Part shown: positions 5,856 to 63,959 of the stretch, piece after piece
How positions within the stretch are numbered: the stretch's first letter is position 1
Layout of the letters: each line of letters opens with the position of its first letter
Source of the DNA: an uncultured Chthonomonadaceae bacterium
GTDB taxonomy: Bacteria; Armatimonadota; Chthonomonadetes; Chthonomonadales; Chthonomonadaceae
Length of the DNA stretch: 64,000 nucleotides
Reading direction: 5' to 3'
Assembly (NCBI GenBank): GCA_963835065.1
Contig: CAWIEK010000039.1
Location: 1-64,000 of the forward strand
Translations under genes and position numbers: made by a program
The notes under the pieces: generated by a model
Seen by the model: the letters and a program-made list of their open reading frames with translations, nothing else
What the model was told of the DNA's origin: nothing
Database searches by the model: none

Positions 5856-6389
5856 ATCAACAAAGACTTTCGTGTGAATGAACAAATTTTGCGGATGCAA
5901 AACGGCGTCCGCGTGCGCGACGTTCGCTTGATTGACGAAGAGGGCCAGCCCCTCGGAATCTTGAACGTCCGTGATGCCCTTGCGCTGTCTGTGGAAAAGG
6001 GACTCGACTTGATTGAGGTGGCTCCCGCCGCCCAGCCGCCCGTCTGCAAGATCGGCGATTACGGCAAAATCCGGTACGAGCAGGGCAAGCGTGAGCGCGA
6101 ACAGCACAAGAAGCAGAAGCAGCAGGAAATCAAGGGCATCAAAATGCGGCCCGTGACCGCTGAACACGATTTTCAGGTGCGGCTGCGGCACACGCAAAAG
6201 TTTTTAGAAGAAGGCGACAAGGTCAAAGTCACCATTCAGTTCAAGGCGCGCGAGATTACACACCCGGAAATCGCCCGCAAACTGATGGACAAAATGGTCG
6301 AGTCGGTAGGCGACAAGGCAATCATCGAAAAGCCGCCGTCCATCGAAGGCCGCATGATGACCATGATCCTCAGCCCAAAAGCGCAGTAA
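5856..6389 (+). CDS. infC: translation initiation factor IF-3, non-canonical ATC start
   Basis: IF-3 motifs GLDLIEVAP..PPVCKIGDYGK and GDKVKVTIQF; RBS GGAGGGGT followed by in-frame ATC AAC AAA; in-frame TGA just upstream. Confidence 0.95.
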   Translation: MNKDFRVNEQILRMQNGVRVRDVRLIDEEGQPLGILNVRDALALSVEKGLDLIEVAPAAQPPVCKIGDYGKIRYEQGKREREQHKKQKQQEIKGIKMRPVTAEHDFQVRLRHTQKFLEEGDKVKVTIQFKAREITHPEIARKLMDKMVESVGDKAIIEKPPSIEGRMMTMILSPKAQ

Positions 6390-6574
6390 CGGTTTCCGAT
6401 ACGCCGGCCTGTTTGCAAGTGGGCGCGAATGTCGTTCCGAAGCCGGGTCTCATTCCCGGCTTCGTTGCTGTCACGCCATACCTGTCATTTTCGGCATTTT
6501 TAACGACAACATCATTCTTGCGCGGCAGTTTTCCAAGTATTCGTGTCGCTGCGCAGAAGGTTCTTATTCCAGCT

Positions 6575-6778
6575 ATGAAAACCAAACTGAAAACCCGCAA
6601 AACCGCGGCCAAACGGTTCACCCAATCCGGCACAGGCAAACTGATGCGCGGCAAAACCGGCCTCAACCACCTGATGCGCAAAAAAGACGGCCCCCGCCGC
6701 CGTACCCTGCTCGCCGACGGCGAACTGTACAAAGGCGACAAAAAGCGCATTTCCCGCATGTTGGGAGAAGGAATTTAG
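6575..6778 (+). CDS. rpmI: 50S ribosomal protein L35
   Basis: MKTKLKTRKTAAKRF..GTGKL..NHL; lies between infC and rplT. Confidence 0.95.
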   Translation: MKTKLKTRKTAAKRFTQSGTGKLMRGKTGLNHLMRKKDGPRRRTLLADGELYKGDKKRISRMLGEGI

Positions 6779-6905
6779 GAGGTAGACGGTAGACGGTAGA
6801 CGGTAGACGGTAGGAAGACCTATCTGATTATAGTGTTGCGCAAACCGTAAATAGAGAAGAGGGTTTTTCTACCGTCTACCGTCTACCGTCTACCGTCTAC
6901 CTCCT
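6777..6905. repeat. heptamer-arm palindrome, (GGTAGAC)4 ... (GTCTACC)4
   Basis: Perfect 37-bp inverted arms 6777-6813 and 6869-6905 with a 55-bp spacer. Confidence 0.95.
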
Positions 6906-6926
6906 TTCTCGAAAGGAGCGTCCCCT

Positions 6927-7307
6927 ATGCCGCGCGTGAAACGTGGCACGATGACCCATAAGCGCCATAAGAAGGTGCTGGAAACCGCCAAAGGCAACTG
7001 GGGCGGCAAGCGCAATCTGTTCAAGACGGCGCACGAGCAAATGCTCAAATCGGGTAACTATGCGTACCGTGACCGCCGCAACAAAAAGCGCGAGTTCCGG
7101 GCGCTGTGGATTATCCGCATCAGCGCCGCCTGCCGCGCGCAGGGCATGCAATACTGCCGCTTTATCGAAGGCATGACCAAAGCCGGCATTGAGCTTGACC
7201 GCAAAGTGCTGGCGGAAATGGCTGTCAACGATCCCGACACGTTTACGCAGCTCGTCGCGCAGGCGACGAGCGCCCTCAAAACGGCGGGAAGCCCGGTTAC
7301 AGCGTAA
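6927..7307 (+). CDS. rplT: 50S ribosomal protein L20
   Basis: MPRVKRG...YAYRDRRNKKREFRALWIIRI...LDRKVLAEMA. Confidence 0.98.
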   Translation: MPRVKRGTMTHKRHKKVLETAKGNWGGKRNLFKTAHEQMLKSGNYAYRDRRNKKREFRALWIIRISAACRAQGMQYCRFIEGMTKAGIELDRKVLAEMAVNDPDTFTQLVAQATSALKTAGSPVTA

Positions 7308-7309
7308 TC

Positions 7310-7378
7310 GGTGTTGGGTATTGGGTGTTGGGTGTTGGGGAACTTTCCTTGTTACGCCCGATACGCGATACTTAAACT
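7310..7378. repeat. heptamer-arm element, (GGTRTTG)4 with decayed right arm
   Basis: ggtgttg ggtattg ggtgttg ggtgttg directly after the rplT stop; degenerate cccgatac gcgatac downstream. Confidence 0.75.
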
Positions 7379-7398
7379 TTGGCGATTGTTATAATTCA

Positions 7399-7451
7399 AA
7401 CGCCCTTTACTTGCTCTCCCGCAACCGTTGCCTGAGCAAGTGAAGGGCGTT
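7399..7451 (+). other. 18-bp-stem hairpin in the pheS leader
   Basis: aacgccctttacttgctc / gagcaagtgaagggcgtt, just after an extended -10-like TGTTATAAT (7387-7395). Confidence 0.6.
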
Positions 7452-7466
7452 CTGACGTTTGGATAA

Positions 7467-7557
7467 TCGGTGTTCGGTATTCGGTGTTCGGTGTTCGGCA
7501 GACCCTTGTTCAACAGAGGCATTGCCCAAATACCAAATACCGAATACCGAACACCGA
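7467..7557. repeat. heptamer-arm palindrome, (CGGTRTT)4 ... (AAYACCR)4
   Basis: Arms 7467-7500 and 7523-7557, ending just before the pheS RBS. Confidence 0.9.
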
Positions 7558-7572
7558 CAGAGGAATAAGGTT

Positions 7573-8589
7573 GTGACAGATACCATTCCTACACAGAACA
7601 GCGACACATTCGGCAGCGTGGAAACGTTGGCGCAGGAAGCGCGGGACGCTTTGCGGCAGGCCACGACAACGCTGGAACTGAGCGCGATTGAAACGCGCTA
7701 TCTGGGACGCAAGGGCAGCCTGAACGAACTGCGCAAGGCCATCGGCGGCCTGCCCAAAGAAGAGCGTCCCGCGTTTGGAGCCAAAATCAACGAAGCGGTG
7801 GAAGCTCTGACGGTTCTGCTGGACGCGCGGCGCGCTGAATTGGCGGAACAGGAACTTCAAATTCGGCTTCAAAAAGAAACCATTGATGTCACGTTGCCCG
7901 GACGCCGGGGCGCGCAAGGCAGGCTGCATCCCCTCACGCAAACCGCAGGCCGCATCAAGCAAGCCCTGACAGGCATGGGCTTTGAGTTCGTGGACGGGCC
8001 GGAACTGGAAGATTACCGGTACAACTTTGCCGCGCTCAACTACCCCGAAGACCATCCGGCGATGGATGAGCAAAACTCGTTCTTCGTTACGGACTCGCGC
8101 CTGCTGCGAACCCAAACGACGGCCTTGCAGGGACGCATCATGGCGGAGCGCCGCCCGCCGTTTCGTATCGCCACATTGGGACGCTGCTTCCGCTATGAGG
8201 CGGTAGACGCCACGCATCACCACACGTTTCATCAGATAGACGTGTTCATGGTGGACGAGAAAATCTCAATGGCGGATTTGAAAGGCACGCTCGGCTCGTT
8301 CGCCCGCCAGATGTTCGGGCCGCAAACGCTGGTGCGCTTCCGTCCCGACTTTTTCCCCTTCGTGGAACCGGGGGTGGATTACTCGATTTCGTGGCGCAAC
8401 CGCTGGCTGGAACTCGGCGGCGCGGGCTTAATCCATCCCAACATCCTCCGCGCGCACGGCATCAATACGGAAAAGTACAGCGGCTTCGCGTTCGGCCTGG
8501 GCGTCGAGCGCGTCCACATGATCCAAACCGGCGTAGACGACCTGCGCCTGTATCTGGAGAATGATCTGCGATTTTTGAGACAGTTTTGA
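7573..8589 (+). CDS. pheS: phenylalanyl-tRNA synthetase alpha subunit
   Basis: GRLHPL, YNFAALNYPEDHPA, LLRTQT, FRPDFFPFVEP, GFAFGLGVER; GTG start after RBS. Confidence 0.97.
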   Translation: MTDTIPTQNSDTFGSVETLAQEARDALRQATTTLELSAIETRYLGRKGSLNELRKAIGGLPKEERPAFGAKINEAVEALTVLLDARRAELAEQELQIRLQKETIDVTLPGRRGAQGRLHPLTQTAGRIKQALTGMGFEFVDGPELEDYRYNFAALNYPEDHPAMDEQNSFFVTDSRLLRTQTTALQGRIMAERRPPFRIATLGRCFRYEAVDATHHHTFHQIDVFMVDEKISMADLKGTLGSFARQMFGPQTLVRFRPDFFPFVEPGVDYSISWRNRWLELGGAGLIHPNILRAHGINTEKYSGFAFGLGVERVHMIQTGVDDLRLYLENDLRFLRQF

Positions 8590-8591
8590 GG

Positions 8592-8717
8592 AAGTAGTCA
8601 GTAGTCAGTAGTCAGTAGTCAGTAGAAATGCCTGTTTAATCACGGCTTTGCGCTACAGGAATAGCTTACGAGAGAAGGTTTTTCTACTGATTACTGACTA
8701 CTGACTACTGACTACTT
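8592..8717. repeat. heptamer-arm palindrome, (GTAGTCA)4 ... (TGACTAC)4
   Basis: 37-bp arms 8592-8628 and 8681-8717 with one G-T mismatch; fills the pheS-pheT gap. Confidence 0.95.
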
Positions 8718-8728
8718 GAGGTTCTCCC

Positions 8729-10838
8729 ATGCGTATCCCCTTACAATGGCTGCAACAGTATGTGAACGTACAGGCGACGCCGCAGGAAGTCGGCGTGAAG
8801 CTGACGATGGGCGGGCTGGAAGTGGAAGGCATCGAAGAAGTCGGCAACGGGGCCGGTTCTGGATGTGTATGTCACGCCGAACCGGGGCGATTGCCTGTCG
8901 CTGCTTGGCGTGGCGCGGGAAGTGGCCGCGCTGTACGGCCTGCCGCTTGCGCCGCCCGTTCCGCCCAAATCGGAAAACGGCGGCGAGGTGGCGGGGCAAA
9001 CGTCCGTTACGATTGAAGACGCGGATTTGTGCCCCCGTTATGCGGCGCGGATTGTACGCGGCATCAAGATTGGGCCGTCGCCGGCATGGATGCAGGCGCG
9101 ATTGGAAGCGGCGGGGCAGCGTCCTATTAATAATGTGGTGGACGTGACCAATTACGTGATGCTGGAATTAGGGCAGCCGCTCCACGCCTTCGATTTGCAC
9201 AAGCTGGCGGGCGAACGGATTGTGGTTCGGCGGGCGCGGGACGGGGAAACCATTACAACGCTTGACGGCGAAGCGCGAATTCTTTCCAATGCGACGCTTG
9301 TGATTGCCGACGCGGAAAAGCCGGTTGCGGTTGCGGGCGTAATGGGCGGCGCGGACTCGGAAGTGGACGAGAACAGCGTGGATATTCTGATCGAATCCGC
9401 GCATTTCGACCCGCTTTCCATTCGGCGCGCGTCCCGTCTGCTGAAACTGCGCACGGAAGCCTCCTACCGTTTCGAGCGCGTCGTAGATATTGACGGCGTA
9501 CAACGCGCCGCAGACCGCGCCTGCGAACTGCTGATGGAAATGGGGCAAACGGGCGTTGTGCCCGGTATTGTGGATGTGTACCCGGAGCCGCGCCCCGTTC
9601 GCCATCTAAATCTGCGCGTGGCGCGGGCAGTGGAACTGCTCGGCATGGACATTACGACCGACGCGGCGACGGACTGCCTGACGCGGCTTGGTTTTACGAT
9701 TGGGCCGCGCATGGACAGCGACACGCTCAATGTGCAGGTTCCCTCGTTCCGCCCGGATATTACGCTGGAAGAGGATTTGATTGAGGAAGTGGGGCGTATC
9801 TACGGGTACGAGAACATTCCCGAAACCCTGCCGCGCGGCTTTACCACGCAGGGCGGAGACAGCCCGGACGGCTTGCTTATTGACCGCATCAAGCACATTC
9901 TGGCGTCTGCGGGCTTGCAGGAAGTGGTGACGCACAGCCTGACCGCGCCCGCGTTTTTCGACTCGCCCGATGACGCGCAACGCCGGGTATCGGTGCGCAA
10001 CGCATTGTCGGCGGAAGTGGGTGGCCTGCGGCGTTCCCTCCTGCCCACGCTGCTGGATGTGGCGCGGCACAACGCCGCCTTTCAGCAGGCTAACATGGCG
10101 CTGTTCGAGGTTGGGCGCGTGTGGCAGATGCAGCCGGTTCCCGCCGAAGACGGCGGTTCCGGGGAGCCGATTCCAACGGAGTACATCGCGGTGGGCGGTT
10201 TGCTCGTGGGTTCGCTGGAACCGGGCGACTGGCACAACAAAGGCAAGGGAACAAGCGCGGACTTTTATACGGCGCGCGGCATTGTGGAACGCCTGACCGC
10301 TGATTTAGGGCTGGATTCCATTTCCTTCACGCCGCTTGGCGACAAAGCCAACGCCCTGCCCTTACTGCATCCGGGACGCAGCGCCATGATTGCGCGTAAC
10401 GAAAGTCAGGTTATCGGGATTGTGGGCGAAATCCATCCCCGCGTTGCGCAGACATTGGATTTGCGCGATCACATTTACGTGTTTGAACTCAGTTACGAGG
10501 CGCTGAAGCAGGAGGGAAACGCTCCCACATCGGCCTACCATGCCCTGCCGCGCTTCCCGGCTGTTACCCGCGACCTGGCTCCGCGTTTGGCCGCCGATGT
10601 TCCGTACAAGCAGGTGGAAGCGGCCATCGCCGCCCTGACACTGCCCCTGCTCGAATCCGCGCGCCTGACGGACGTGTTTACCGGTGCGCCCGTGCCGGAA
10701 GGCCAAAAGAGCCTGACCCTGTCCTTCACCTTTCGCGCCCCGGATCGAACGCTCAACGACGCCGAAGTTACCGCCGCCCTGCTGCAACTGCGCCACGCTC
10801 TGGAAACGCAGTGCCATGCAGCCTTCGCAGGAGCCTGA
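8729..10838 (+). CDS. pheT: phenylalanyl-tRNA synthetase beta subunit, short form, +1 frameshift in GGGG 8849-8852
   Basis: [12 protein letters not shown] joins [51 protein letters not shown] and the C-terminal FDX-ACB domain. Confidence 0.95.
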
Positions 10839-10841
10839 TTC

Positions 10842-14262
<3,421 letters not shown>

Positions 14263-25328: not shown

Positions 25329-26648
<1,320 letters not shown>

Positions 26649-26732: not shown

Positions 26733-27339
<607 letters not shown>

Positions 27340-63834: not shown

Positions 63835-63959
63835 AGTAGTCAGTAGCCAGTAGACAGTAGTCAGTAGAAATGCCTCACTACTCGAAGCTGTGCAGAACAA
63901 GAACAGCTTGCAAGAAACGGGCATTTCTACTGACTACTGACTACTGGCTACTGACTACT
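63835..63959. repeat. heptamer-arm palindrome (AGTAGNC)4 ... (GRCTACT)4
   Basis: 40-bp arms 63835-63874 and 63920-63959 with one mismatch, 2 nt after the TAG. Confidence 0.95.

Follow-up and report, generated by a model that had tools for sequence, protein, structure and literature searches.

Hairpin elements with arms of tandem heptamers appear, from the comparison of orthologous gene junctions, to be replaced as wholes, spacer included, at fixed junctions in an uncultured Chthonomonadaceae bacterium and its relatives, an effect larger than the switching of repeat units in their arms. The arms themselves change, with high probability, through templated copying and not through point mutation alone. 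The window, that is, the whole 64,000-nucleotide stretch of DNA analysed (GenBank assembly GCA_963835065.1, contig CAWIEK010000039.1, positions 1 to 64,000), contains three of these elements: element A in the rpmI-rplT gap, element B in the pheS-pheT gap and element C near its right end, all with arms of 33 bp. The features are as follows, with the strand given for those that have one.

6575..6778, + strand: rpmI (L35), TIGR00001 above cut-off; its stop codon adjoins element A
6779..6912: the "seat", from the rpmI stop to the ribosome-binding site of rplT; relatives have other elements here, or none
6781..6813: element A, left arm, GGTAGAC x4 + GGTAG, with five GTAG cores
6814..6868: element A, spacer of 55 nt, belonging to the 58-nt spacer family but diverged
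6869..6901: element A, right arm, reverse complementary to the left one at every position
6927..7307, + strand: rplT (L20), TIGR01032
7310..7557: further heptamer arrays in the rplT-pheS gap (a GGTGTTG array and a TCGGTGT arm pair), partly retained in the congener G002
7573..8589, + strand: pheS, TIGR00468
8593..8625: element B, left arm, AGTAGTC x4 + AGTAG
8626..8683: element B, spacer of 58 nt, a typical member of the spacer family
8684..8716: element B, right arm, with one unmirrored variant copy
8729: ATG of pheT, downstream of the right arm of element B
63835..63959: element C, AGTAGTC arms (left 63835-63867, right 63927-63959) around a 59-nt family spacer (63868-63926)

The original prediction, that the unit differs in every arm copy of elements A and B, is borne out (GGTAGAC throughout at 6781, AGTAGTC at 8593), and so is the single intermediate unit of element C, which is one unmirrored AGTAGAC copy accompanied by a mirrored AGTAGCC copy. 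The arms of element A mirror each other perfectly, and the unmirrored variant in the right arm of element B had gone unmentioned. No open reading frame of the PF05635 family is found in elements A, B and C, the spacers of which are 55-59 nt long, and a search of positions 6400-9000 against Rfam gave no gathering-score match, only two plant miRNA models far under threshold.

The spacers of elements A and B had been taken as homologous, and the elements as having switched their unit. Recounting gave the same 17 identities in the first 28 nt of the A and B spacers (8 of the 11 mismatches being transitions), the same 33/52 identities between B and C, and the shared end GGTTTTTCTAC in A and B. Judged against 2000 dinucleotide shuffles, B and C match without gaps at 38/58 positions (p<=0.001), A and C are weakly alike (p=0.04; p=0.42 after trimming 8 nt off each end) and A and B score 14.8 (null 2.5 +/- 2.8, p<=0.0005; trimmed p=0.011). 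The A-B similarity is significant with gaps but not without them; the best ungapped match is 24/55 (p=0.08), so that a 3-nt indel is required. Against 59 spacers of the family described below, the spacer of element A scores 8.8 (shuffles 1.0 +/- 1.3; 0/300 as high; z about 6), albeit it lies under the cut-off of the family profile and outside its 74 matches, and element B is missing from its eight best matches under end-trimmed scoring. Since A matches the whole family and B is not among its best matches, the homology is family-wide, and A and B are neither sisters nor a single element in the course of a switch.

The 8.0-Mb genome (G000) has 1899 heptamer and 312 octamer tandem arrays, other periods being scarce (35, 80, 26 and 6 arrays for periods 5, 6, 9 and 10). 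Nearly all heptamer arrays (1852/1899) comprise 3-5 copies, 98% of the 1899 have an arm length of 20-46 bp, and five cores are present in 119 of 172 arms. Pairing of 806 arrays yields 403 inverted elements, the spacers of which are most often 50-59 nt long. Polarity is constant: among 337 neighbouring arrays separated by 40-80 nt, 331 are arranged left-then-right and one is reversed, a count that is partly circular as the types were defined from paired elements. With gene calls of our own making, 289/342 short elements have co-directional genes on either side (4590/6339 for all gene pairs), and 198 of these 289 start -5 to +15 nt from a stop codon. Direct repeats of at least 5 nt flank 0.098 of 347 elements and 0.093 of permuted ones; the elements are therefore not MITEs, which they resemble in having terminal inverted repeats (the 33-bp arms), but from which they differ in this absence of a target-site duplication. 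The mirror symmetry may extend weakly into the outer flanks (at positions 1 and 2, 0.43 and 0.39 vs 0.37 and 0.30).

One 58-nt spacer family is associated with six arm units. A profile trained on 55 of 75 AGTAGTC spacers has 74 matches at E<1 (one in the reversed-genome control), every one of them with an arm: 59 AGTAGTC, 9 GGTAGAC, 2 AGTAGTG, 2 AGTAGGG, 1 AGAAGAC and 1 AGGCATT, the last of which differs at 4/7 positions. The AGTAGTC- and GGTAGAC-armed spacers have an almost identical consensus, and 9 of the 18 GGTAGAC-armed spacers fall within the family. Both arms share their unit in 67/74 matches and are clearly different only in C49:731893, where one arm is switched and the spacer is 85% identical to that of an unswitched element; C53:202204 and C64:22854 have part-converted arms, with the new unit in the outer copies of both sides. 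Mapped on the spacer tree, unit type does not cluster (9 changes for 9 GGTAGAC rows; shuffled mean 8.6), thus significant spacer similarity goes together with units that are not congruent with spacer clades, albeit on a star-like, poorly resolved tree (6/70 branches well supported) on which the AU test does not reject GGTAGAC as one clade (p=0.094). Spacer identities are alike within and between the two classes (0.546, 0.549 and 0.536).

The family spacers are about 32% off their consensus. Their divergence is transition-rich and free of base bias (retained: A 0.67, C 0.66, G 0.65, T 0.73), in line with the original inference, but the spacers do not vary equally freely at all columns (conservation 0.28-0.96). 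The AGTAGTC arms deviate at 131/3900, a figure biased low because the search demanded good arms. Two ideas about the spacers were discarded: mirrored AGTAGCC does not mark one spacer clade (8.7 vs 12.9 for random sets), and descent from a four-helix gene is unsupported, the best profile match in 87 cassette loci having an E of 1.8.

Deviant bases in one arm are frequently mirrored in the other. Across 346 elements 160/463 are mirrored in register, compared to 72/398 and 70/388 one unit off register and 30/282 and 26/276 two units off; for rare, singleton variants the count is 10/44, with 0.64 expected. The outer two copies are mirrored in 24/39 cases and the inner two in 2/28 (p=4e-6); without the commonest variant the figures are 14/24 and 2/19, and over all classes 43/115 and 24/120 (p=0.004). 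Mirrored outer variants recur as whole haplotypes (seven with GAAGTGA, for example), and part of the mirroring may have been inherited from a donor. The outer bias and the part-converted elements are the expected trace of fold-back template switching primed by the inner copies, a mechanism which the accessible text of PMC5941160 describes and which would extend to the elements studied here. Templated copying of the arms rather than independent point mutation, as originally inferred, is sustained by the variants mirrored in register and by the lack of unit clustering on the tree; as an interpretation it is incomplete, given that whole elements including the spacer appear to be replaced at fixed junctions.

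This replacement is seen in relatives. In the congener G002, of which 1.7 of 7.5 Mb were compared and whose four-fold sites differ at 0.346 (G001, at about 75% on the nucleotide level, was too distant for comparison and was left out), the 62 orthologous sites comprise 34 with two arms, 12 where a single array was called, 11 where none was, and 5 that are empty. Arrays are thus present at 46/62 sites as against 12/43 control gaps (p=3e-6), and the unit pair is retained at 0/34 two-armed sites, several of which differ by one position only. Only 1/20 orthologous spacer pairs reach z>3 in forward and 2/20 in reverse orientation, one spacer being inverted at its orthologous site; simulated drift predicts z>3 for 97%, a level attained by 48% of 31 control gaps, these intergenic gaps being often poorly conserved too (median z 2.8). 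Four of the commonest units of G000 (5.5-10.9% of arrays) make up 0-0.7% in the G002 sample, where the spacer family is mostly found with the 8-mer GGTAGAT[AG] and the rpmI-rplT seat has AGTAGGG arms.

Closer relatives were found as junction contigs in Logan, the coverage of which excludes spacer positions 6818-6857. In X1 and X2, from two studies, contigs match 6300-6777 with 9/478 and 11/478 differences and then run into GAATGAT-type arms, and other contigs match from 6913 and are preceded by complementary GAATGAT-type arms; the pieces on the two sides of the seat lie on different contigs, with no sequence seen that bridges them. The flanks are thus ~98% identical, yet the rpmI-rplT junction has another arm class. 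An X5 contig spans 6778-6913 with 87 other nucleotides and X6 has a further unit at the same seat, both with flanks of only about 48 nt on each side, and X4, a distant contig, is empty at both junctions (8 nt only at the rpmI-rplT seat). The metagenome relatives of pheS are all distant (at most 86% amino-acid identity), and 3 of the 31 loci inspected, out of 72, have arrays after pheS.

In G000, an assembly 92% complete, three PF05635/TIGR02436 genes (C8, C25 and C33), which encode four-helix-bundle proteins, lie between arms of this kind. The C8 cassette (C8:31944-32384) has AGTAGTC arms, and the 72%-identical relative of its gene in G002 has GGTAGAT[AG] arms, the same that the spacer family has there. 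For the comparison of clades, at an identity of at least 58%, the 80 best among 591 relatives on genome contigs were combined with two phylum searches. In the C8 clade, arms are present at 67/81 loci and 99/105 arms consist of 7-mers, with G2 and A4 each in 98/99 and with positions 3 and 6 variable. In the C25 clade (7 loci) 9/12 arms are ACAGG[GT] inward, 1 is in the opposite sense and 2 are C8-type, and in the C33 clade, where 13/17 loci have arms, 19/20 arms consist of 8-mers. Both arm period and arm motif track the protein clade, a coupling broken by the 2/12 C25-clade arms and by the G002 8-mer. The units of elements A and B disagree at two positions, 1 (with G in 5/99) and 6 (with A in 22/99), of a motif that was derived from the very arms it describes; the switch between 6781 and 8593 stays within this degenerate C8-clade motif, an indication that constraint acts alongside conversion, and GGTAGAC and AGTAGTC read as tolerated spellings of it. 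The uneven conservation of positions across phyla would imply a reader of the repeat. For abundant classes such as AGGCATT and AGTTGAT no PF05635 cassette was found in the assembly.

PF05635 is stated to have no known function in the accessible text of PMC4990558, which describes the solved relative 2GSC, a structure of five chains, as a homopentamer; five subunits might be matched to five cores. The cassette protein shows homology to Avd (NF033474, with E values of 1e-7 to 3e-6, under cut-off), and Avd is a pentameric cofactor of a reverse transcriptase according to the available part of PMC6182149.

We lean, moderately, towards the following reading: gene-less hairpin elements placed after stop codons, whose arms are common to PF05635 cassettes, are kept by templated overwriting from donor copies and by fold-back copying, with the units limited by a protein. 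The 33-bp stem would extrude in single-stranded DNA at the replication fork and be repaired from an ectopic copy or, alternatively, a new element would land on the old one, which would then be deleted. The nascent strand would subsequently fold back, pair via the inner copies and copy the outer copies of the other arm, so that both arms would change together. Lastly, the units would be confined to a degenerate motif (R-G-D-A-K-N-Y in this clade) that a cognate pentameric protein reads, possibly with five subunits on five cores. No enzyme that mobilises, creates or swaps the elements was identified. An extended version, in which pentameric Avd-like proteins, each reading its own degenerate 7- or 8-mer with five subunits on five cores, drive the templated overwriting at post-stop seats as a transposase-free mobile system, is unlikely.

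Doubtful, although it survives best among the alternatives, is an account without any switching, in which every unit class goes back to a separate master cassette, elements come and go at preferred post-stop sites, strains recombine in the conserved flanking genes and the symmetry of the arms is inherited from symmetric masters. Empty sites do exist (X4 at both junctions; 5/62 in G002), most orthologous spacers are unrelated (1/20 forward at z>3) though four-fold sites differ at only 0.346, arm haplotypes recur and the monophyly of GGTAGAC is not rejected (p=0.094). Against it stand the mirrored singleton variants (10/44 vs 0.64 expected) and the part-converted and one-arm-switched elements; moreover, GGTAGAC spacers are no more alike among themselves (0.546) than they are to AGTAGTC spacers (0.536), no column is diagnostic for them (p=0.11), and six masters with one spacer would be needed.

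We consider it improbable that the elements are functional mRNA stems, processed by RNase III or stabilising in the manner of rRNA intervening sequences (IVS), in which selection for pairing leads to compensatory changes in the second arm. Their position between co-directional genes (289/342) and close to stop codons (198/289), the conserved occupancy of the seats and the very stable stems (DNA fold z -10 to -14) would suit such a role, and in Coxiella RNase III cleaves an IVS stem that contains heptamers, as reported in the accessible part of PMC4990558. Against it, unmirrored mismatches show no excess of G·U on the transcribed strand (70 vs 83 A·C, p=0.33), the two halves of the spacer show no covariation within elements (p=0.62), spacers are oriented both ways (27 sense, 25 antisense), and pairing alone requires neither the 7-nt periodicity nor the fixed G2 and A4. 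A role in RNA can coexist with copying at the level of DNA, as our preferred reading has it.

Re-synthesis of the arms by a reverse transcriptase that uses the Avd-like pentamer as its cofactor (retrohoming similar to that of diversity-generating retroelements or telomerase, about five units per side of a junction motif) is suggested by the Avd homology, by the tight arm length and by arms that swap at a common GCATT junction, beyond which near-identical compound cores have unrelated terminal arms, but it is very improbable, as the spacers have no adenine bias and the two RVT_1 genes, C49:681660 and C50:52695, are beside none of the three PF05635 genes, one of them being located between cas2 and a cas1-like gene and the other being retron-like. 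A diversity-generating retroelement proper was ruled out: all four bases vary alike, mostly by transitions, and neither of the two reverse transcriptase genes is next to an avd-like gene.

Inverted heptamer pairs and template switching are both already known. The GGGAATC repeats of Xanthomonas (Rehm et al. 2015, PMC4692102) are, in the accessible text, intergenic heptamer arrays, often in convergent inverted pairs (70 and 75 cases), whose position is kept between relatives in 83%, and in this they resemble the present elements (46/62). They consist, however, of one unit kept between species, whereas here dozens of units, a common spacer family, mirrored variants and units replaced in situ are observed, and no unit pair is retained between congeners. 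The paired "global regulator binding sites" (classes 1-3) of Geobacter metallireducens (Aklujkar et al. 2009, PMC2700814) are likewise 3-5 tandem 7- or 8-mers in opposite-strand pairs, with several classes per genome, and are absent from a congener; the available text interprets them as IHF/HU sites and does not treat a PF05635 link, turnover or mirroring. The ORF-bearing 23S rRNA IVS of Coxiella also involves a PF05635/S23p gene, inside a ~28-bp stem, with tandem heptamers beside the ORF that vary in number between strains; as far as the accessible text goes (PMC4990558), it is a single-copy element in rRNA with demonstrated RNase III excision, in contrast to the hundreds of mostly gene-less copies at mRNA junctions here. 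The elements of the window are not IVS of this type: elements A and B are flanked by rpmI/rplT and pheS/pheT and not inserted in 23S rRNA, and a PF05635 ORF between arms is a feature of the C8, C25 and C33 cassettes, not of elements A-C.

Quasi-palindrome template switching, as the accessible part of Lavi et al. (2018, PMC5941160) presents it, accounts for perfect arms and mirrored variants, but such correction conserves inverted repeats and leaves new units, the replacement at seats and the clade-linked motif unexplained. GTAG REPs (Di Nocera et al. 2013, PMC3733652), in the available description, are also multicopy extragenic inverted pairs downstream of genes, and GTAG is likewise present in the arms of the hairpin elements; REPs are, however, 20-40-bp self-palindromes with one terminal tag, and were ruled out since the arms here are built of tandem units and pair only with one another, GTAG being one of many cores. 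Four matches to the Y1 transposase PF01797 (two of them weak) are present in the genome, of which L044 has long inverted repeats of its own on both sides instead of arrays, and no RAYT link to the hairpin elements was seen among the PF01797 loci viewed. The TAACTGA repeats of Beggiatoaceae (MacGregor 2015, PMC4679880) are 2-6 heptamers at gene junctions, ribosomal operons included, and according to the accessible text nearly all are direct unpaired arrays of one unit, unlike the paired arms described here.

No paper describing the rewriting of units or the replacement of elements at seats turned up in a literature consulted mostly as open-access text; the Geobacter supplements may hold related alignments. 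The genome offers a predicted binding motif per protein clade, with fixed and free positions, and a predicted inner-to-outer direction of arm copying, and rpmI-rplT is a named junction at which strains about 2% apart bear different elements. If the replacement is as proposed, the overwriting of spacers within core translation operons outpaces the drift of the neighbouring genes. Many bacteria have an excess of heptamer repeats, which the accessible text of PMC4692102 described as uncharacterised; overwriting driven by a pentamer, if true, would explain this excess and assign PF05635 its function.

GxxExxY and DUF559 nucleases are also present in the genome, with 3 matches each and with other inverted flanks, and no link between them and the hairpin family was found. 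The halves of the spacer have what we take to be an IHF-like appearance.

The compound element of the window combines a conserved core with an exchangeable terminal arm, and two array stacks lie further along:
11498-11605: compound element, conserved core plus exchangeable terminal arm
25881-26065 and 27138-27325: two mutually similar stacks of at least four arrays each

About two dozen further copies of the compound element are present in the source genome (G000), and its terminal arm is built, from copy to copy, of one or another of four unrelated units. The congener G002 retains the layout, with all units different from those of G000. The conserved core is a GATGA-type hairpin with GCATT at its end. 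The likeness of the two stacks suggests the recent copying of a nested element. Elsewhere in G000, three pairs of elements are identical or nearly so, representing either recent copies or assembly duplication:
C27:5813 and C29:8167
C37:156197 and C37:159027
C49:339816 and C51:116536

Two sites differ between G000 and G002. At G000:C30:44476, both arms are changed in G002, while the 97-nt segment that they enclose, possibly coding, shows good conservation there (z 12.7). At a single seat (G000:C24:82671-83578 vs G002:C2:440100-440800) the small inserts differ and an arm stands at the end of each; the G000 insert resembles, by eye, a toxin-antitoxin pair.

In distant relatives (L155-L198), the pheS-pheT junction holds variously heptamer hairpins (called in 3 of 31 loci), other palindromic repeats or nothing, and is therefore a general repeat hot spot. 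In the window, the start region of pheT is frame-shifted:
8729-8865: pheT start region, start at 8729, frame shift near 8838 (sequence; X3 and X4 contigs)

Matching contigs from sequencing runs X3 and X4, the latter distant, lack one base at 8838/8839 relative to the window, therefore the frame shift is probably an assembly error.

Genes of other kinds lie beside inverted flanks, an arm pair or an element:
L364-L367: three GxxExxY (PF13366) genes and one DUF559 gene, each bracketed by its own inverted flanks
L042 (G000:C49:680160-683777): cas2, a stand-alone group-II-like reverse transcriptase (RT), then a short cas1-like ORF (cas1 by eye)
L043 (G000:C50:51195-54827): retron-like RT, 476 aa

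The products of L364-L367 are candidates for the nucleases of a parallel type of cassette; the flanks of L365 are 9-nt arrays. A heptamer arm pair sits between the RT and the cas1-like ORF of L042. The RT of L043, which has a long N-terminal extension, lies immediately downstream of a family element and a BRCT/SWIM-like gene (labelled by eye).
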